From IMG/VR virus record IMGVR_UViG_2737471834_000004: a DNA stretch of 6,265 nucleotides. The stretch is one strand, 5' to 3'. Each line of letters opens with the position of its first letter. Position 1 is the first letter of the stretch. The stretch is from a virus. Lineage: Duplodnaviria; Heunggongvirae; Uroviricota; Caudoviricetes. Shown one piece after another: positions 1 to 6,265 of the stretch. The notes under the pieces are model-generated. The model did not search any database. It saw only the letters and a program-made list of their open reading frames with translations, and was not told where the DNA came from. A program made the translations under genes and the position numbers.

Positions 1-82
1 GTAAGTTGGCAGCATCACCCATGCGCAATATATAGAACAGCGAAGAAATATGATGCAATTTTATAGTGATTTCATTTTAAAC

Positions 83-109
83 CTTCCCCTCTCTGAGTGA
101 GAAGGGAAG
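83..109 (-). terminator. Possible weak intrinsic terminator downstream of the 890-aa ORF
   Basis: Inverted repeat cttccc(c)tctc / gaga(a)gggaag at 83-109, 9 nt beyond the TAA stop. On the minus-strand RNA it is followed by UUUAAAAUGAAAU, an A/U-rich but short U-tract. Confidence 0.3.
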
Positions 110-117
110 TAGAGCGA

Positions 118-2790
118 TTACTGAATACCGTATTTCTTCTCGCGGACAGAAAACGCAATATGTCCGCCTTCAAGGATAGAGCAAATATGATGTCTTATAC
201 CTTGTTGCATTCTTATATTACCATCTTCTATTGCTCCCACTTCATAACTGATAACATCACCATCATAATTAGCAACAATTACTTGTTCTGAATCAGAGTT
301 AATAACCAGATTTGCATTGTGTGTAACAATGATTACTTGTCGATATTTTTTTATTTTTTTGAACAAAGGAACCAATTGCTTCATAATAAAACTATTATCA
401 AGATCATCCTCTGGCTGATCAAATACAAATGGGCTACCAAAAGGATCTGTTGCAAGTTTCAAGCTTACATAAAAAGTCCCACGCTGGCCAACTGATAGTT
501 GGTCAACAGTCTTACCTTTATAGGTAAATTCCGCATTAACATATAAATAATTCTTTATCTTTTCTGGAGAAAACAAATAATGCATTAATTCATATCGTCC
601 TCCTTGATTAAAGTACTCACTTTTCCAGAAAAAATCCTCTATTGTAATTAATTCACCATCTCCATCCGTGCTAATTACTTTATCATTGTTTAACAGCTTA
701 ACAAAATCAGTATATGATTGTACATTAAATGTATCCGTTAACTTTTGTCGTGTTGATTTTTCATTTGATGCTCTAAATTTCCCGCGATTAATACAACCTT
801 CTAATCCTGCATAGAACTTATCATTATCAAAGATAATTGACCCACGAATATTTATGTCGGATAAAATATCTCTAACAATCTGGTTTTGCTCTTTGTTCCA
901 ACTATCATTTTCAATATGAAGAGAATCGTATAAAGATTGTATTTCTGTAACTTGCTCTTCTATATATTTACTATATTTCACTGCAAAATCACTGCGCTCT
1001 CTTACATAAGCAAAGTATCGTTTTTTATTTTCCTCTATTTCTTTTATTTTAGCCTTCGCTTTATCTATGTTTTCTTGATATTCACTTAACTTACTTAACA
1101 ACGATGACACATCCTGATTAATACCTTGATCAAGGAAAGATTTTTTAATTTCTTCATTTTTTAACCTCACAGCCTCTATATCATCATTAATCACACGAGC
1201 ATTTTTTTCTAAAATCTCATAGTAAACAGAAGCATCTGTCAAAGGTAATTCAGGCACAATAACAGATAATTCATTGTAACTTTTAATACGTTCGTTAATT
1301 TCAGAAAAACCTCTTCGAATAAAAGCAATCAACTCTTGATTTCTACTCAATGCCAACTGGAGTTTGTTAATTGACTCAGAATTTTTCTGATATTCAACAA
1401 TGAGTTCTTTATTTTTAGGATTAGTTAATGTTTCAGTTAGCTTTTGATTTTCTTCAATAATTTTTGTCTGGAATGCATCAGTATTAATTCTATTTCCATA
1501 ATTATCTGATTGCGTCCAATAATCTACGAACGTTCTATATTTCGAAAGATTATCTAGCAATAAACTCATATTTGCAGAGTCATATTGTTTTTCTCTAATC
1601 CCAAGCATTCTTTTAATTTCACTGCTTAGGCTTTCTGGATTTTTTGCAAAATTAACAATGTCACCTTGTGAAACATGGAGATAACTATATGGTGATGAAT
1701 TCTCCGAGTTAAACAAAATAGAGGATTCTTCACCATAACCTTTATCTAAGAATACACTTACACCTTTAGCGACCACGTTTCTTTCCGATGTTAAAAAGGA
1801 ATCTGGCATTAATACTTTTTTCATTGCATCAAGGAATATACTTTTCCCAGTGCCTCTACCACCAATTATTGAAACCATATTCCTATTTAATGGTATTGTC
1901 TGTTCTTTAAAGGAAAGATTATTTCCCTCGAAAATATTACCTGATAAATTTATCTGACTAAAATACGGTTTAACGTATGATAAATCAATAAAATCATCTG
2001 ATTGTTGAACCCTTTCCGCTGGCTCAAATAGAGTTTGTCGTAACCCTTGGAATGACGGCTTTGCTTTTACCCAAGTATATTTACTACCAATCTGATTAAA
2101 ATCATGTGCATCAGAGCATACAAAAACTGGTTTTCTAGGAGCATCTTCATATCGTGTATCTGATAAAAAGAAATCACGATCTCTGGGCCGCCCCAATACA
2201 ATATCCCCTAATTTATCGATTTCTTTTGCAACAGCGACCGAACGCCCCTCTTTCTTCTCTGGGTGAAATCCACCATATCCATTAGGACAAATCGCTATAA
2301 AGAAATCCCTGCCAATAACAAAGTCATTTTTTAGGCCTTCGCACAATGTTTCATAATTGATAATTGCCTCATTAAAGTTAATACCCGACTCATCCATAGA
2401 ATCTTTACTACACCAAATAGTCTTTCCATCATCTGTGGTGTTTTGAAGTTTTATTCTTGATAACACCTTATTTATTTTTTCTGATGGTATATCTTCAGAA
2501 AAAATTGCATGTATATTTATCCACTCACCAGATTTATTGGGCTGCGCAATTCTAAATTCAATATTTGCCAATATACACACAGCATATTCTTTCTCAGAAA
2601 ATTTCTTGCGTATAGTTTCAAGCTCATCTTTTGCTAAAAACCAATAATTTGTCACAGCAATAAGTTTTAAATTATTTTTAATAACAGCATCAACATATAA
2701 ATCAATATCCTTTGGTTGATAGTTGTTATTGACATGCGTTAATGGTGAATGTATGTGAAGATCCCATTTATTCCAAGTTGAACCAATCAT
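118..2790 (-). CDS. PHP-domain phosphoesterase fused to SMC/Rad50-like ABC ATPase with coiled-coil insert; candidate anti-phage defence protein
   Basis: Uninterrupted 890-codon ORF, ATG at 2790-2788, TAA at 120-118, AGGA about 7 nt upstream of the ATG. Hand-counted motifs: PHP motif I DLHIHS (aa 10-15) and terminal SDAH (aa 226-229); Walker A GGRGTGKS (aa 309-316); K/E/Q/L-rich region aa ~440-650; ABC signature-like LSVGQ (aa 765-769); Walker B-like FVFDQPEDDLD (aa 788-798); H-loop VTHN (aa 822-825). Strongly AT-rich, Asn/Lys/Ile-rich codon usage unlike the flanking P4 core. Confidence 0.85.
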   Translation of the reverse strand: MIGSTWNKWDLHIHSPLTHVNNNYQPKDIDLYVDAVIKNNLKLIAVTNYWFLAKDELETIRKKFSEKEYAVCILANIEFRIAQPNKSGEWINIHAIFSEDIPSEKINKVLSRIKLQNTTDDGKTIWCSKDSMDESGINFNEAIINYETLCEGLKNDFVIGRDFFIAICPNGYGGFHPEKKEGRSVAVAKEIDKLGDIVLGRPRDRDFFLSDTRYEDAPRKPVFVCSDAHDFNQIGSKYTWVKAKPSFQGLRQTLFEPAERVQQSDDFIDLSYVKPYFSQINLSGNIFEGNNLSFKEQTIPLNRNMVSIIGGRGTGKSIFLDAMKKVLMPDSFLTSERNVVAKGVSVFLDKGYGEESSILFNSENSSPYSYLHVSQGDIVNFAKNPESLSSEIKRMLGIREKQYDSANMSLLLDNLSKYRTFVDYWTQSDNYGNRINTDAFQTKIIEENQKLTETLTNPKNKELIVEYQKNSESINKLQLALSRNQELIAFIRRGFSEINERIKSYNELSVIVPELPLTDASVYYEILEKNARVINDDIEAVRLKNEEIKKSFLDQGINQDVSSLLSKLSEYQENIDKAKAKIKEIEENKKRYFAYVRERSDFAVKYSKYIEEQVTEIQSLYDSLHIENDSWNKEQNQIVRDILSDINIRGSIIFDNDKFYAGLEGCINRGKFRASNEKSTRQKLTDTFNVQSYTDFVKLLNNDKVISTDGDGELITIEDFFWKSEYFNQGGRYELMHYLFSPEKIKNYLYVNAEFTYKGKTVDQLSVGQRGTFYVSLKLATDPFGSPFVFDQPEDDLDNSFIMKQLVPLFKKIKKYRQVIIVTHNANLVINSDSEQVIVANYDGDVISYEVGAIEDGNIRMQQGIRHHICSILEGGHIAFSVREKKYGIQ

Positions 2791-2838
2791 TTCTATTCCT
2801 TATCATTAATTGCTATATGTAAAAATAGATCCAGACGC

Positions 2839-2866
2839 ATTTTAAGCCAACAATAAAGATCTTCAA
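2839..2866 (-). promoter_or_regulatory. Candidate sigma70 promoter for the cargo gene
   Basis: On the minus strand: -35 TTGAAG (2866-2861), 16-nt spacer, -10 TAAAAT (2844-2839), about 45 nt upstream of the ATG at 2790. Pattern match only. Confidence 0.3.
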
Positions 2867-3023
2867 TAATAATCCACCCTATCGTCACTTTTTAAGCAGT
2901 TATATACTGATGAAACTGAACATTTCCATCTAATAACCCGAAAATTCGTTCATCTCCACATGTATGTAATGACAGGCTCCCCACGTAATGCCCTATAAAG
3001 TCTTTTTGGTAATAATACGCGCG

Positions 3024-3042
3024 GTGCTTTCCCCGCCTCGCC
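3024..3042 (-). other. cos: cos site (19-nt P2/P4-type cohesive end)
   Basis: Plus strand gtgctttccccgcctcgcc is the reverse complement of GGCGAGGCGGGGAAAGCAC, which I recall as the P2/P4 cohesive-end sequence. It lies downstream of psu, as in P4. Confidence 0.75.
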
Positions 3043-3066
3043 CGCCCGCTTTGCAGGGCGGTTTTA
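3042..3066 (+). terminator. GC hairpin plus T-tract abutting cos
   Basis: Stem ccgccc (3042-3047) / gggcgg (3056-3061), 8-nt loop, then TTTT (3062-3065) on the plus strand. Could terminate plus-strand transcription entering the cos/psu region or be a packaging-related structure. Confidence 0.3.
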
Positions 3067-3142
3067 ATGCAGTTGCACAGTCACGCTCAGGCCGTGCCGG
3101 GCGTGGCCTGGTCTGCAGGAAATGAGGCGGGAAAACGCATGC

Positions 3143-3176
3143 AAAGCCATGCACCTTATCGATGCATGGCTTTTTT
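3143..3176. terminator. Bidirectional intrinsic terminator between psu and cos
   Basis: Perfect 8-bp stem gccatgca (3146-3153) / tgcatggc (3163-3170), flanked by AAA upstream and TTTTTT (3171-3176) downstream on the plus strand. On the psu (minus) transcript the hairpin is followed by UUUGCAUGCGUUUU. Sits about 38 nt past the psu stop. Confidence 0.5.
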
Positions 3177-3207
3177 CAGTAAAAACGGGCGGATTTTTCG
3201 GGGAGTT

Positions 3208-3780
3208 TTACACAGACTGACGTGATGCCAGTTCTGCACTTTTACGCGAAAAAATCATGTTCTGCGCAGGGGTGAATTTTTCACGGCTGTCATCCACCGA
3301 AGCCGCGTCAGGCCTGAATCCGATGGTCGTTAAAATGTTGCTATCCTGTGCGGAATAATTAATTTTTTCCCCCTTCGCAAGCCAGGACAGAAGGGCTTCA
3401 CGCAGGGCATCTGTGGCACGCTGTATGGCACAGTTTCGGGCAATGGCCGTCAGCTCACTGTAGCCCATCAGCTCCGGTGCCAGTGCGGCCGCCAGTGCTG
3501 TGCCGTGCTGCTGCATAAAATCATTCAGCCGCTCGCGGATGCTGATGTGCTGAACGGCTTCATGCGAACGAACATAACGACCGGCGGCCTGATTCACCTG
3601 CCATTTTCTGACTTCGATAATATTGCGTAATTCGTCCAGGCGACTGACGTTTCTGCCTTCCCCGGACAGAAGCCGCAGATATTCCTGTTCGGCTGCCGCC
3701 AGTTCATTTTTGCGCTGAAGCCATGCCGCTTTGTTATTCTGGCAGACCTCAAAAGCCTGCTGTAATGACATTGTGGTCAC
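3208..3780 (-). CDS. psu: Psu (polarity suppression protein; Rho antagonist and capsid decoration protein)
   Basis: 190-aa ORF, the size I recall for P4 Psu, in the expected position after delta and before cos. The codon at 3780-3778 is GTG with AGGAGA about 7 nt upstream; an alternative ATG lies at 3771-3769. Identity asserted from memory, not searched. Confidence 0.85.
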   Translation of the reverse strand: MTTMSLQQAFEVCQNNKAAWLQRKNELAAAEQEYLRLLSGEGRNVSRLDELRNIIEVRKWQVNQAAGRYVRSHEAVQHISIRERLNDFMQQHGTALAAALAPELMGYSELTAIARNCAIQRATDALREALLSWLAKGEKINYSAQDSNILTTIGFRPDAASVDDSREKFTPAQNMIFSRKSAELASRQSV

Positions 3781-3794
3781 ACCCCGTCTCCTGA

Positions 3795-4040
3795 TTAATG
3801 GTTGAATGGTGAGCTGTAACAGCCTTTAACTTTTCGGACAACAGCCGGTGCTGTGCTTACCGGTGCTGGTTTTTCCTCCGTGACCGGAGAACGAATCACG
3901 GCACAAATTGACTCATGCGTTTTAAATGTCGCCGAACAGTAAATATTCTGGCACTGCAGATAACTTTCTTTGACATTGTCACTCACATACCGGCTGGTGC
4001 GGGTATGCGCTGAATGACGACAGAAAGGGCAGCGCATCAT
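3795..4040 (-). CDS. delta: Delta/Ogr-family zinc-finger late-gene activator, single-domain form
   Basis: 81 aa with C-x2-C...C-x4-C (CPFC ... CQNIYC) typical of the Ogr/Delta family. ATG at 4040-4038 overlaps the sid stop as ATGA (4037-4040). Located between sid and psu as in P4. Confidence 0.85.
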   Translation of the reverse strand: MMRCPFCRHSAHTRTSRYVSDNVKESYLQCQNIYCSATFKTHESICAVIRSPVTEEKPAPVSTAPAVVRKVKGCYSSPFNH

Positions 4041-4771
4041 GACAGCAGTCCTCTGGCCTTAAGCTCTGCTCCCTGCTGGTCTATTTTGTCCTGCCACACC
4101 TTGCGCTGTGCCGGTGTGCCTGCCACCTCATAATCCATGTGCGGGAGTGTTGCCGCTGACAGCCCGGTCAGCCGGAGAACCGGCTCGCCGCTGAGGCTGA
4201 TTTGTATCTGTTTAATTTTCTGTTCCAGCGATGATTTCACCTGCTGCATGACAGCCTTTTCCGGTGCGACGTAGCCCTGATGGCCGGTGGTGTTGGCGAG
4301 CGGATTTTCCTGTACCAGGATGCTCAGATGCATTGCCCGGACAAGCACCTCACAGGTTTCATTCAGGGCGTGTTCCAGCTCATGCTCTGCATACAGACTC
4401 AGAAGGTGATGATGTGCCTTCCGGTAGGCGGTGGCCGTGCTGTCACACGCCCCTTTCAGGCGTTCACGTTCGAAATTCAGCACCACGGCCAGATTGTCAT
4501 ATTCCTGTACCAGCTCCCGGCGTGCCACGCGCTCAATGTGGCGCTGTTTCAGCTCGTCGCTCAGGACACCACCGGCTGCACGAAAGGCCGTGCGCCAGTC
4601 GTCAGCGTCGTTTCCGTCGGCCTGCGTCAGCGCATTTTTTTCCTGCTCTGCCCGTTCAATGGCCGTGACGGTCTCATCCATCAGGCGGGCGTTCTCAAGA
4701 TGGGCGGCTCTGGACTTTTCCAGTTGTGCCAGTGCGGGTTGCAGATATTCAGGGATAGTGTGGTCAGACAT
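4037..4771 (-). CDS. sid: Sid (capsid size determination, external scaffold)
   Basis: Start placed at the ATG 4771-4769 (MSDHTIPEYLQ...), giving 244 aa, the size I recall for P4 Sid, with GAGGAG 8 nt upstream. The ORF-track start at 4837 is rejected because it lies upstream of the predicted Psid start site. First gene of the sid-delta-psu operon. Confidence 0.85.
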   Translation of the reverse strand: MSDHTIPEYLQPALAQLEKSRAAHLENARLMDETVTAIERAEQEKNALTQADGNDADDWRTAFRAAGGVLSDELKQRHIERVARRELVQEYDNLAVVLNFERERLKGACDSTATAYRKAHHHLLSLYAEHELEHALNETCEVLVRAMHLSILVQENPLANTTGHQGYVAPEKAVMQQVKSSLEQKIKQIQISLSGEPVLRLTGLSAATLPHMDYEVAGTPAQRKVWQDKIDQQGAELKARGLLS

Positions 4772-4861
4772 TTTCCGGCTCCTCGTCACTTCAGGTTGAG
4801 AAAATTGTGACGTACACCGGACAACAACACGACGCATTGCAGATGTGCCAGCCCTGACACA
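4772..4861 (-). promoter_or_regulatory. Psid late promoter with Delta/Ogr box
   Basis: TGT-N12-ACA dyad (tgtgccagccctgacaca) at 4844-4861. Placing its centre near -55, as for P2/P4 late promoters, puts the start site near 4797, downstream of the ATG at 4837 and upstream of the sid ATG at 4771. Confidence 0.55.
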
Positions 4862-4915
4862 GGAGACTCATCCTCAGACCGGCAAGCCAGGAAAAGGTCG
4901 CAGGAAAAACCGGCT

Positions 4916-5090
4916 TACTGTTTGTTTTTTTATATTTTACTGTTCACCTCTGTTCACCATAAGAAAAAAGATAAGTAATACAGTAAGTTAAAGGGTGAAC
5001 AATCGCAGTAATGACTGTTCACCGTCTGTTCACCACTGTTCACCCGTTGATGGGCTTTTTGTGCTGTTTATTACTGTTTGTTTTTATTAA
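4916..5090. repeat. crr-like iteron cluster (alpha-protein binding type I repeats, TGTTCACC)
   Basis: Direct copies of cTGTTCACC at 4940-4948, 4950-4958, 5015-5023, 5026-5034, 5036-5044 (10-11 bp phasing) and an inverted copy GGTGAACA at 4994-5001. Flanked by two copies of tactgtttgttttt(t)at at 4916-4933 and 5072-5087. TGTTCACC is the octamer I recall for P4 ori/crr. Confidence 0.65.
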
Positions 5091-5148
5091 TTCGTCGGGA
5101 ATGAATAAGAAAAAACGATTTGTATTTCACTATAAAAATTACGAATTG

Positions 5149-5178
5149 CTTTAAGTGGCTTTAAATGACTTTAAGTGG
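5149..5178 (+). promoter_or_regulatory. Three tandem 10-bp repeats upstream of PLL; candidate operator
   Basis: ctttaagtgg (5149-5158), ctttaaatga (5159-5168), ctttaagtgg (5169-5178), exactly contiguous and in helical phase, about 30 bp upstream of the PLL Delta box. Confidence 0.4.
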
Positions 5179-5203
5179 AGATGAACAAAAAACACACAAG
5201 CAT

Positions 5204-5275
5204 TGTAAGGCTGCCGGAACAAATCCCCCCTGTTGCGTCTGCTGAAAATATTCACAAAATAAAACGCTACCCGAA
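5204..5275 (+). promoter_or_regulatory. PLL (Delta-activated late-left promoter) with Delta/Ogr box
   Basis: TGT-N12-ACA (tgtaaggctgccggaaca) at 5204-5221. Predicted start site near 5268, about 55 nt upstream of the vis ATG and about 395 nt upstream of the candidate PLE start site, matching the ~400 nt PLL-PLE spacing reported for P4. Confidence 0.5.
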
Positions 5276-5323
5276 GCCGGACGGACTTATCCGGTGCTGT
5301 ATGGACATTAACGAGGTAGCCCG

Positions 5324-5590
5324 ATGCAAGCTGTTTTTTCTTCCCCGTCTCCTGCCCCTGTGACGCCACTGATGCCGCTGCCGGACATCACACAGGAGCG
5401 TTTTTTACGTCTGCCGGAAGTGATGCACCTGTGCGGCCTGTCACGCTCGACCATCTATGAACTCATCCGTAAGGGGGAATTTCCGCCGCAGGTGAGTCTT
5501 GGCGGTAAAAATGTGGCCTGGCTGCACTCTGAAGTCACCGCATGGATGGCCGGCCGCATTGCCGGACGCAAACGGGGGTATGACGCATGA
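5324..5590 (+). CDS. vis: Vis / AlpA-family helix-turn-helix regulator
   Basis: 88 aa with AlpA-like HTH core ([29 protein letters not shown] ... [12 protein letters not shown]). GAGG 7 nt upstream of the ATG at 5324. First ORF downstream of the PLL candidate, as for P4 vis; stop TGA overlaps the next ORF start as ATGA (5587-5590). Confidence 0.75.
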
Positions 5591-6177
5591 TGATGCCCGC
5601 TCTGCAAAAACTCCCTTTTTCTGGCTTGCCTTTTTCCGGCATTTGCGGATATAGTTTTTCCGTTGCCGCAAAATCGGCAGCCGGGCGTGAGAACCCGTGT
5701 AACTCGAAGGCGACATATGACGCGCCATGCGTCTTTTTTTGTGTCGCAATCAACGCCACAGAGCGCCAGATTATGGTGTGGCGTGTGGTTTGCCGTGCAG
5801 GTATGATCCTGTTCGCAATCGCATGTTATGCCACTGAGTCAATGGTAGCTCAGGCGGGGCAGCCTCCGGGCTGGCCGGTATTCTTCGAGGCCGGTATTCT
5901 CACCCCCGTCTGGGCTATCGCCATCGAGCGTGAGAACTCCGGCGATAGCAGTTATTTGCTACTCGAAGGAGGCTGCCTTATGGCTACAACCCTTACCCCC
6001 TCACACCCTGAATTTGTCTTTGTGTTTGCGGCTGTCCGTCGCGCAGACCGTCATCCCCGTATCTGCATGCTTCGCACCGTCGCCGGTGATGAACGCAGCG
6101 CCCGCCGTTCCCTTGTCCGTGACTATGTGCTCTCCCTTGCTGCCCGTCTGCCGGTGGTGGAGGTGTCCCGTGCGTAA
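5587..6177 (+). CDS. eta: Eta-like ORF (long nested ORF of the left operon)
   Basis: 196-codon ORF beginning with three consecutive ATGs (MMM) and overlapping the vis stop. P4 eta is described as 197-199 aa with three possible starts, beginning upstream of PLE and containing kil in frame. The amino-acid composition is unusual, so protein-level function is uncertain. Confidence 0.5.
5626..5655 (+). promoter_or_regulatory. Candidate PLE (constitutive early-left promoter) inside eta
   Basis: -35 TTGCCT (5626-5631), 18-nt spacer, -10 TATAGT (5650-5655). Located inside eta and upstream of kil, consistent with P4. Confidence 0.45.
5980..6177 (+). CDS. kil: Kil-like small protein (65 aa), nested in-frame in eta
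   Basis: ATG at 5980 preceded by AAGGAGG (5966-5972) with 7-nt spacing. The 65-aa product matches the reported size of P4 Kil. Ends with a double stop TAATAA (6175-6180). Confidence 0.6.
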
Positions 6178-6265
6178 TAAAAAAGCCCCTCAGACCGTCT
6201 CAGCACGTCATGACGCCCGTGAACACCTCAGCATTGAGGCTTACCATGCGTATTTTCATGAAAGG

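Follow-up and report, generated by a model that had tools for sequence, protein, structure and literature searches.

What lies immediately left of the cos packaging site in this satellite, and what does the abrupt change in base composition there mark? We analysed a 6,265-nt stretch of a viral record (IMG/VR IMGVR_UViG_2737471834_000004; hereafter the window), which represents a P4-like satellite prophage in its left half. Between 3043 and 6247 the window matched P4 with a mean identity of 96.3%, 85% of the query being aligned; it carries a cos site with its cohesive end, a sid-delta-psu late operon, and a CI/C4 RNA together with an AlpA-type regulator. From cos rightward, the features are:

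3015-3087, no strand: cos packaging site, with the cohesive-end 19-mer at 3024-3042 and the core common to helper phage P2 at 3018-3077/3087
3208-3780, minus strand: psu (polarity suppression / capsid decoration; Pfam Psu, E 1e-87)
3795-4040, minus strand: delta, a short 81-aa Ogr/Delta form (Pfam Ogr_Delta, E 1.4e-18)
4037-4771, minus strand: sid (capsid size determination), one of the P4 features under the match, with a 244-aa homologue in strain AF16 named Sid by RefSeq
4900-5300, no strand: AT-rich core stretch of 34-38% G+C between sid and orf88, a promoter/ori region and not cargo
5324-6177, plus strand: orf88 (AlpA-type regulator; Pfam Phage_AlpA, E 7e-21) and an Ash/Icd-like ORF (Pfam Phage_ASH)
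6248-6265, no strand: terminal 18 bases, not P4-like

The cohesive end of P4/P2 type, 19 nt long (GTGCTTTCCCCGCCTCGCC), agrees exactly with the ends of P4, whose record terminates at window position 3043, right at the cohesive end. P2-type phages align to 3018-3077, and about 2,100 E. coli genomes align only from 3012-3015 rightward. The first-pass annotation had placed cos here and called the DNA to its right P4 core, and on both points it was correct. Further right, the Ash/Icd-like ORF overlaps the P4 immunity RNAs isrK (5662-5739) and CI/C4 (5838-5925), with Rfam scores of 74.3 bits for C4, 67 bits for isrK and 49.5 bits for c4-a1b1. Complete genomes that carry the same cargo gene, trlF, share the order tRNA-Sec, int, trlF, cos, psu, delta, sid ... 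primase; the primase gene and an intact integrase gene beside tRNA-Sec are present in 11 of them, and both lie outside the present window. At the right-hand end, P4 and each of the 1,004 E. coli genomes that match stop at 6247. The final 18-mer was absent from every locus of the comparison set and had 26 scattered non-enterobacterial matches in GTDB genomes, about the number expected by chance.

The compositional break itself is sharp. In sliding 200-nt windows, G+C ran at 27-41% over 1-3000 and mostly at 48-62% from 3001 onward, and a single-change-point likelihood scan placed the break after 3017 (2-lnL support interval 2946-3021), with a mean G+C of 32.4% to its left and 53.4% to its right. 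The log-likelihood gain was 140.6, far stronger than in any of 200 shuffles (mean 2.75, maximum 11.6). Codon usage follows the same division: GC3 is 0.23 in trlF versus 0.46-0.64 in core genes, and synonymous codons are heterogeneous between trlF and the core (chi-square 325, 41 df). The discontinuity that had been judged by eye is confirmed, and it sits closer to cos than the 20-30 bp first estimated, with 6 bp separating it from the cohesive end. The accompanying statement that all DNA right of cos is GC-rich P4 core stands as to P4 core but not as to G+C, given the stretch at 4900-5300, which corresponds to about P4 9367-9767, within the annotated P4 replication origin. Because this part of the core is equally AT-rich, low G+C is not specific to cargo. 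The leftmost 200 nt, at 40% G+C, are not cargo either; they contain one end of IS1 and the 3′-terminal part of the integrase gene.

A break of this kind could in principle be an assembly chimera joining unrelated DNA at a repeat, and both ends of the window do run 18-19 nt into non-P4 sequence, as contig ends in repeats do. Against this, positions 19-3100, including the cos junction, are collinear and 99.5-100% identical in 11 complete E. coli chromosomes, and the same arrangement recurs in 10 further assemblies. We reject a chimera at the cos junction on the strength of this collinearity, and give the explanation next to no probability.

Left of the break, the features are:

1-19, minus strand: outer 19 nt of the left terminal inverted repeat of IS1 (reverse complement GGTGATGCTGCCAACTTAC), the IS1 body lying left of the window
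20-100, plus strand: last 26 codons and stop of a P4-type tyrosine integrase gene (int), the remainder of the gene being cut off by IS1
78-117, no strand: integrase-side cassette junction, where cassette-specific sequence supplies the final 7 codons of the integrase, with a hairpin of 11 bp at 83-109 and a 17-bp spacer
118-2790, minus strand: trlF, the sole cargo gene, whose 890-aa product belongs to the TrlF family and combines a phosphoesterase domain of PHP fold (about residues 1-270) with an ABC ATPase head of SMC/Rad50 type into which a coiled coil is inserted
2791-3014, minus strand: region upstream of trlF, AT-rich, containing the ribosome-binding site AAGGA and, as candidate promoter, the hexamers TTGAAG (-35, 2866-2861) and TAAAAT (-10, 2844-2839)

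The order of int, trlF, cos and psu is that of the P4 accessory hotspot, which lies between psu and int, adjoins cos, and holds many cassettes proven to be anti-phage (Rousset et al. 2022, PMC9122126). It is this known hotspot, between cos and the integrase gene, that the AT-rich block (about 78-3014) occupies. When satellites at the selC site were compared with one another and with P4 itself, four unrelated cargos were found to share a common start 6-9 bp left of the cohesive end: the elements are alike rightward from GCGCGCG and unrelated to its left, and all four cargos have 29-36% G+C versus 53-54% in the core. In reference P4 the same slot holds the gop-beta-cII region, which has an identical starting point left of cos and is also AT-rich (36% G+C), but its genes are unrelated to trlF and number three rather than one. 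The TrlF cassette was found in 11 of the 2,107 complete E. coli genomes that match the cos stretch, at a query coverage of at least 80%. The proposal of a horizontally exchanged cassette in the variable region of the satellite is upheld by this rarity and by the swapping of unrelated cargos at one site. The possibility that trlF is a conserved core gene of the satellite was ruled out by the same count.

The first-pass annotation had proposed to learn from homologous satellites whether the cassette is swapped as a unit. Cargo is replaced at a shared breakpoint on the cos side. The adjoining integrase allele reaches 99% identity or more in no genomes other than the 11 with TrlF, and elsewhere it does not exceed 89.5%, so that exchange independent of int is at best a possibility. 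Replacement would most likely proceed through homologous recombination between co-resident or co-infecting satellites, within the conserved sequences that flank the slot (cos-psu-delta-sid and int). The cassettes are drawn from AT-rich genes of high mobility, a pool also present on plasmids and chromosomal islands. The switch is sharp on the cos side because the cos core from about 3015 rightward, common to P2, must stay for packaging, while the DNA just to its left is free to change.

The low G+C might instead be a maintained property of this class of genes, for example through xenogeneic silencing of a toxic nuclease by H-NS, or through mutational bias in genes whose stay in any one host is short, rather than a sign of recent foreign origin; the switch would then mark a regulatory or functional domain and not a transfer event. 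The composition of the four P4 cargos agrees with this, as does that of TrlF homologues, which are AT-rich in every host examined (40% G+C in P. aeruginosa within flanks of 64-66%; 32% in a background of 56-62%). Such a property, however, fits alongside horizontal exchange rather than replacing it, and the cassette is rare, its place being demonstrably taken by unrelated genes in other satellites. We regard maintained composition as an unlikely account of the switch, though one with some weight, and read the G+C step at cos as the boundary of the interchangeable slot for defence genes that has already been described in P4-like satellites.

The cos-adjacent hotspot, the fast turnover of its cassettes and the defence role of many of them have been in print from 2022 onward, with an extension in 2026. 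The present element shares with the published satellites (PMC9122126, PMC13586616) its type, the cos-adjacent site, the succession of conserved cos-proximal sequence and variable cargo, and the swapping of single- or few-gene cassettes among otherwise similar satellites; degraded satellites that keep their cargo also occur, and nothing essential differs. A term search of the main text of both papers found no mention of G+C content or AT-richness. The compositional step is correct but ordinary, and matters little, because the hotspot phenomenon is already published. It places the cargo boundary within a few bases of the P2-shared cos core, and could be a cheap marker for pulling cassettes out of unannotated contigs.

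On the integrase side the cassette boundary is diffuse, with G+C falling gradually. Positions 20-100 translate to HAQYIEQRRNMMQFYSDFILNLPLSE followed by a stop, a sequence identical to the C-terminus of a 393-aa integrase encoded beside tRNA-Sec in strain AF16. In satellites with other cargos, the integrase alleles can be aligned as far as about window position 77 and are unrelated beyond it. As a separate observation, the breakpoint on this side falls inside the last 7 integrase codons. In the 11 complete genomes and in 10 further assembly loci with the identical protein, the trlF stop (118) is followed by 17 bp, the convergent integrase stop (98-100) and then tRNA-Sec. Further cargo or partner genes had been envisaged beyond position 1; the 17-bp spacing between the two stops, and the identity of 1-19 as an IS1 repeat, contradict this.

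The cassette had also been credited with a candidate promoter and terminator of its own. Upstream of trlF, 2791-3014 is cassette-specific and unrelated to the sequence at the same position in other satellites. Two candidate sigma-70 sites there, TTGAAG-16-TAAAAT and TTAAAA-18-TATTAT, each match 9 of 12 consensus positions, and an 86%-identical relative preserves both hexamers of the first and the 16 nt between them. This conservation hints at a promoter, but such sites are about as frequent in shuffled sequence (15 ± 4) as in the actual one (17). Past the stop codon of trlF, the hairpin at 83-109 (11 bp, -19 kcal/mol, z = -2.95) is significant and may serve as a terminator; the sequence after it is GUUUAAAAUGAAAU, and the terminator scan made no Rho-independent call at this hairpin because it is without a proper U-tract.

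What, then, does the cassette encode? TrlF, which in strain AF16 has the RefSeq accession WP_023352766.1, matched the NCBIfam TrlF model (NF045780) at 571.7 bits against a cutoff of 350, over residues 3-888 and model positions 2-944. Its match to NCBIfam Ppl (NF042955) reached 109.3 bits (E 1.4e-31), below the family cutoff of 1000, and PADLOC v2 gave weak matches only, to Ppl (85.7 bits, E 5e-25, best stretch at the C-terminus) and to mad3. Pfam PHP models matched weakly (PHP_C, E 0.033), and a PDB sequence search returned only a marginal ABC-transporter match. An N-terminal PHP domain and a C-terminal NTPase are fused in the one polypeptide, and the SMC/Rad50-type motifs are complete and invariant in 20 homologues: Walker A (GGRGTGKS, 310-317), Q-loop (Q375), signature (LSVGQRG, 765-771), Walker B with its catalytic glutamate (DQPE, with E794) and H-loop (H824). 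A coiled coil splits the set, and the predicted structure has helices over 405-643. Foldseek searches with the model gave the Smc head (E 2e-10), JetC (E 1.3e-09) and Rad50 as top structural matches.

These likenesses place TrlF among several known systems. Wadjet JetC, Lamassu LmuB, Rad50 and RecF have an ABC-type head with the same motif set and a long coiled-coil interruption; unlike in SMC/Rad50-type systems, the TrlF nuclease is fused in the same polypeptide, no kleisin, Mre11-like or effector gene is adjacent, and the coiled coil, at about 250 residues, is far shorter than those of SMC proteins. Ppl, in turn, was reportedly described by Gao and colleagues in 2020 as a single-gene PHP-ATPase anti-phage system. 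TrlF resembles it in being a single polypeptide of some 890 aa that joins a PHP-fold phosphoesterase at its N-terminus to a P-loop ATPase at its C-terminus, and in being carried on mobile elements, and its matches to the Ppl profiles are weak but significant; it differs in scoring far below the Ppl cutoff and in belonging to a separate NCBIfam family. E. coli Ppl is an NTP-inhibited 3′-5′ ssDNA exonuclease whose activators are nucleotide depletion and 3′-OH ends (PMC12904381). Toga, a single-protein system of the P4 hotspot that is Foldseek-similar to Gao_Ppl and SMC proteins, protected against phages when tested (PMC13586616). Going by its description, it has the same profile as TrlF, as a single hotspot gene with a Gao_Ppl/SMC-like structure that DefenseFinder and PADLOC do not recognise. 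Literature searches on the name TrlF returned only unrelated acronyms.

Elsewhere, TrlF homologues are solitary in islands and on conjugative plasmids, and in one case stand beside a SIR2 protein. A partner gene was considered and ruled out, with no conserved neighbour in the E. coli, Rosenbergiella, P. aeruginosa and Klebsiella plasmid contexts. From this architecture and distribution we infer that TrlF would provide single-gene anti-phage immunity of the Ppl type, with a PHP-fold nuclease under the control of an SMC/Rad50-like ATPase that may sense some property of incoming DNA, for instance its free ends. The account of the locus that we hold with high confidence is that the known P4 hotspot here holds a one-gene trlF cassette with a probable immunity role of this type. 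TrlF may represent a distinct branch of PHP-nuclease/SMC-ATPase single-gene immunity, sister to Ppl and spread over satellites, conjugative plasmids and islands of Gammaproteobacteria. The family is a widespread Ppl-related candidate immunity gene.

Another conceivable role is in the life cycle of the satellite itself, in cos end processing, P2 interference or DNA repair, rather than in defence against other phages. The gene adjoins cos and shares the orientation of the late operon sid-delta-psu, its SMC/Rad50-like fold is also that of machines that process DNA ends, and several databases call its homologues 'DNA repair protein'. Yet trlF is present in very few satellite-bearing genomes, near-identical cores elsewhere carry unrelated genes in its position, and its solitary homologues on plasmids and islands have no P4 context. 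The gene is therefore not required for the P4 cycle, and a life-cycle role appears quite improbable beside the anti-phage role.

The left edge of the window adds an event particular to this copy. Positions 1-19, read on the reverse strand, agree at 19 of 19 nt with the repeat GGTGATGCTGCCAACTTAC, the first 19 nt of the left end of IS1A; the 331-nt sequence of that end matches at least 5,000 plasmid records, at least 4,009 of them at 99% identity or more, and several of the top ones are annotated as IS1A transposase. Homology to the intact integrase gene of the 11 genomes begins at window position 19, the exact edge of the IS1 repeat. The identical TrlF protein is indexed in 1,048 blocks of the assembly collection, and the ten contigs retrieved for it are all without the insertion; the left (IS1) junction, searched as an exact pattern, had no match in GTDB genomes or metagenome contigs, and the right junction had none in viral contigs. 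Transposable elements are nearly absent from P4 hotspot elements in the 2026 survey (PMC13586616), whereas the present copy has IS1 in int.

We entertain only tentatively, and as a joint reading, that TrlF is a distinct immunity branch sister to Ppl, and that cassettes are bounded on one side by the minimal cos core, 6-9 bp left of the cohesive end, and on the other by a breakpoint inside the integrase gene. If so, every cassette swap would rewrite the last 7 integrase residues, and the IS1-cut integrase together with the recombinant core would show how a satellite becomes immobilised as a defence island of its host. The window is a mosaic: up to about 4045 it differs from the selC TrlF satellites at 0-1 positions per 100 nt, and in 5045-5245 and 5745-5835 at 13-28 per 100. 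By these alignments the window itself is a recombinant satellite, its divergent stretches being near-identical to an ssrA-integrated satellite with a different cargo and a different integrase.

In a 200-nt sliding profile, G+C content stayed at 27-41% across 1-3000 and rose mostly to 48-62% at 3001 and beyond, and a likelihood scan placed a single change point after 3017 (2-lnL support interval 2946-3021), with 32.4% G+C to the left of this break and 53.4% to the right. The log-likelihood gain of the break was 140.6, far above that of shuffled sequences (n=200; mean 2.75, maximum 11.6), so the compositional switch at cos described in the first-pass annotation is real, highly non-random and sharp. 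Rightward, 3043-6247 shared 96.3% identity with phage P4, the alignment covering 85% of the query, and the linear P4 record terminates exactly at window 3043; the 19-nt cohesive end GTGCTTTCCCCGCCTCGCC occupies 3024-3042, and the P4 left end runs on leftward from there. P2-type helper phages matched the window at 3018-3077/3087 only, delimiting the shared cos core. The annotation had also called the DNA right of cos GC-rich P4 core, which holds for its identity but not for its composition throughout: ~400 bp at 4900-5300 have only 34-38% G+C and map to the P4 promoter/origin region, in the sid-orf88 interval within the annotated origin. Because this stretch is AT-rich yet core, not cargo, low G+C by itself is no cargo marker.

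Features of the window
118-2790, minus strand: trlF, the sole ORF filling the AT-rich block
2866-2839, trlF strand: candidate sigma-70-like site TTGAAG-16-TAAAAT, 9/12 match
2895-2866, trlF strand: candidate sigma-70-like site TTAAAA-18-TATTAT, 9/12 match
Right of cos: psu, Pfam E 1e-87
3795-4040: delta, short form, Ogr_Delta
Right of cos: sid, ORF
Right of cos: orf88/AlpA, ORF
Right of cos: Ash/Icd-like ORF containing the P4 immunity RNAs
5838-5925: C4/CI RNA, P4 immunity RNA (Rfam)
5662-5739: isrK, P4 immunity RNA (Rfam)
5649-5701: c4-a1b1 target, P4 immunity RNA (Rfam)

Comparison with related satellites placed a homology breakpoint at the same position. Eleven complete E. coli genomes carry window positions 19-3100 at 99.5-100% identity, and ~2,096 other E. 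coli genomes matched only rightward of 3012-3015. In strain AF16 the order is tRNA-Sec, integrase, trlF, cos, psu, delta, sid ... primase, with trlF and the integrase convergent and their stops 17 bp apart, an arrangement repeated in 10 further assemblies with an identical TrlF protein. We retrieved five other satellites from the same selC (tRNA-Sec) site and aligned them, together with P4 and the window, on the cohesive end. The slot proved to hold unrelated cargo: in the selC satellites, an AAA/P-loop NTPase of 586 aa encoded on the opposite strand or else two genes forming a pentapeptide-repeat cassette, and in P4, gop-beta-cII. Similarity ran through all of them on the right as far as GCGCGCG, located 6-9 bp to the left of the 19-mer, with unrelated sequence farther left, and all cargos had 29-36% G+C versus 53-54% in the next 1.5 kb of core. 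The alignment breakpoint, the compositional step and the left edge of the P2-shared core (3018) thus fall within a few bases of one another, and the central reading of the first-pass annotation, that cos bounds the cargo in the variable region of the satellite, is correct. Purifying selection acting on the packaging site best accounts for the exact point at which cargo gives way to cos.

Such variable cargo next to cos is already known: a study of the P4 hotspot described conserved versus variable cos-proximal sequence with >300 gene arrangements, many shown to be anti-phage (PMC9122126), and a 2026 study reported rapid swapping of P4 cassettes (PMC13586616). The window adds small details, namely a breakpoint in the last integrase codons, an IS1 insertion, a mosaic core and an 18-nt non-P4 tail.

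On the integrase side, alleles aligned to about window 77, beyond which the sequence was cassette-specific, comprising the last seven integrase codons (from 78), the stop (98-100), a hairpin (83-109; 11 bp, -19 kcal/mol, z -2.95) and a spacer, so that satellites with different cargos encode different integrase C-terminal tails. G+C fell gradually along int, from ~47% to 35%, leaving this boundary diffuse in composition. The annotation had envisaged further cargo or partner genes beyond position 1; instead, 20-100 encodes the last 26 integrase residues, and 1-19, read in reverse complement, matches the first 19 nt of IS1 (its outer terminal inverted repeat) exactly. A 331-nt query for the IS1A left end matched at least 5,000 plasmid records, 4,009 of them at ≥99%, with several top matches annotated as IS1A transposase. 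Since homology to intact integrase starts precisely at position 19, the IS1 lies inside this gene, directly behind the ...RGIYN motif, with 26 codons left before the stop, and the integrase tail directly adjoins trlF, with no partner gene between them. Truncation of the integrase may have immobilised the element. This insertion differs from the near-absence of transposable elements from P4-like elements in a 2026 P4/P2 survey (PMC13586616).

The TrlF protein matched the NCBIfam model 'TrlF family AAA-like ATPase' over its full length (571.7 bits, cutoff 350); matches to anti-phage Ppl (NCBIfam 109 bits, cutoff 1000; PADLOC 85.7 bits), mad3 and SMC_N/AAA_29 were weak. Across 20 homologues of 50-89% identity, invariant residues comprised N-terminal H12-x-H14, H94 and D227-x-H229, a putative set typical of PHP metal sites, together with the Walker A motif GGRGTGKS (310-317), Q375, the ABC signature LSVGQRG (765-771), Walker B with E794, and H824. 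The cargo is a member of an annotated family and probably a Ppl-like defence gene. Ppl has been described as a 3'-5' ssDNA exonuclease that NTPs inhibit and that nucleotide depletion and 3'-OH ends trigger (PMC12904381), and it is the best available model for how TrlF would work. Among eight unannotated P4 hotspot loci picked at random, six were reported to give protection against phages, and 'Toga', one of the functional systems named there, is a single protein missed by current models and Foldseek-similar to Gao_Ppl and SMC proteins (PMC13586616); that description fits TrlF.

The promoter and terminator assigned to the cargo gene stand as candidates only. Sigma-70-like matches of 9/12 were not commoner than in shuffled sequence. 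In a relative of 86% identity, the TTGAAG/TAAAAT site, its spacing and the AAGGA ribosome-binding site are conserved. The 83-109 hairpin is significant but lacks a U-tract, and the scan did not call it a terminator. Since trlF runs in the same direction as sid-delta-psu, transcripts of the late operon may also extend into it. On the plus strand, terminator-like hairpins with T-runs lie inside the cos core (3042-3061, called by the scan) and just right of it (3146-3178, spotted by eye only); they could end transcription of plus-strand cargo reading toward cos, as in satellites L019-L023, and insulate psu from antisense.

Codon usage set trlF strongly apart from the core genes (synonymous codons, chi-square 325, 41 df): GC3 was 0.23 versus 0.46-0.64 in five core genes, CTG occurred 2 versus 55 times and ATA 29 versus 4 times per 1000 codons. 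TrlF homologues were AT-rich regardless of host, at 32% G+C in a 56-62% background and 40% within P. aeruginosa flanks of 64-66%, and 106 conjugative plasmid records covered at least 80% of the protein; both features fit a pool of mobile, never-ameliorated genes. No conserved trlF neighbour was found in Rosenbergiella (61% identity), P. aeruginosa (55%) or Klebsiella plasmids (44%). On the K. variicola conjugative IncF plasmid pNDM-IMP-2 (L051, 889-9676), a lone homologue of 44% identity lies beside a SIR2-family protein and site-specific integrases, in defence-island-like surroundings. The relative of 86% identity (L013, 7150-11810, and L014; metagenome assembly) lies next to yicJ. It has part of psu, a cos in decay, an undamaged trlF (89% protein identity) and pieces of the integrase gene, with the P4 core absent, and is thus a degraded satellite with its cargo retained. 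Retention of intact defence genes in defective satellites has been reported (PMC13586616).

The window is nearly identical to the selC TrlF satellites in the cassette, cos, psu and delta; it differed from them by 0-1 per 100 nt from 2900 to ~4045 and by 13-28 per 100 nt at 5045-5245 and 5745-5835, with the promoter/ori (5045-5245) and immunity region (5645-6035) 7-28% divergent. The short delta encodes 81 aa, a form seen in some other satellites, versus the duplicated 166-aa form of the P4 reference. In the divergent stretches the window was nearly identical to the ssrA-integrated satellite of strain LD39-1, whose integrase and cargo are both other than the window's. Near-identity to two different satellites in turn indicates that the window is itself recombinant, with a crossover in the conserved sid/promoter region. 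By this route, homologous recombination in the core flanks would move the cassette together with cos-psu-delta in a single block. A role for the cos ends in seeding recombination has been raised as a speculation by Rousset et al. (PMC9122126). For the integrase allele beside trlF, identity reached ≥99% in none but the 11 TrlF genomes and was ≤89.5% elsewhere, so that movement of the cassette apart from int would be hypothetical. Divergence from the other TrlF satellites peaks in the immunity RNA region (5649-5925), suggesting a different immunity type.

At the right edge, 6248-6265 (GCGTATTTTCATGAAAGG) matched no P4-like satellite: similarity to P4 and to each of the 1,004 E. coli genomes that match stops at 6247, ~70 nt into the epsilon/derepression gene, and the 18-mer occurred in GTDB genomes only at chance frequency. 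This tail may have arisen by another insertion or by rearrangement, or may reflect a join made in assembly.
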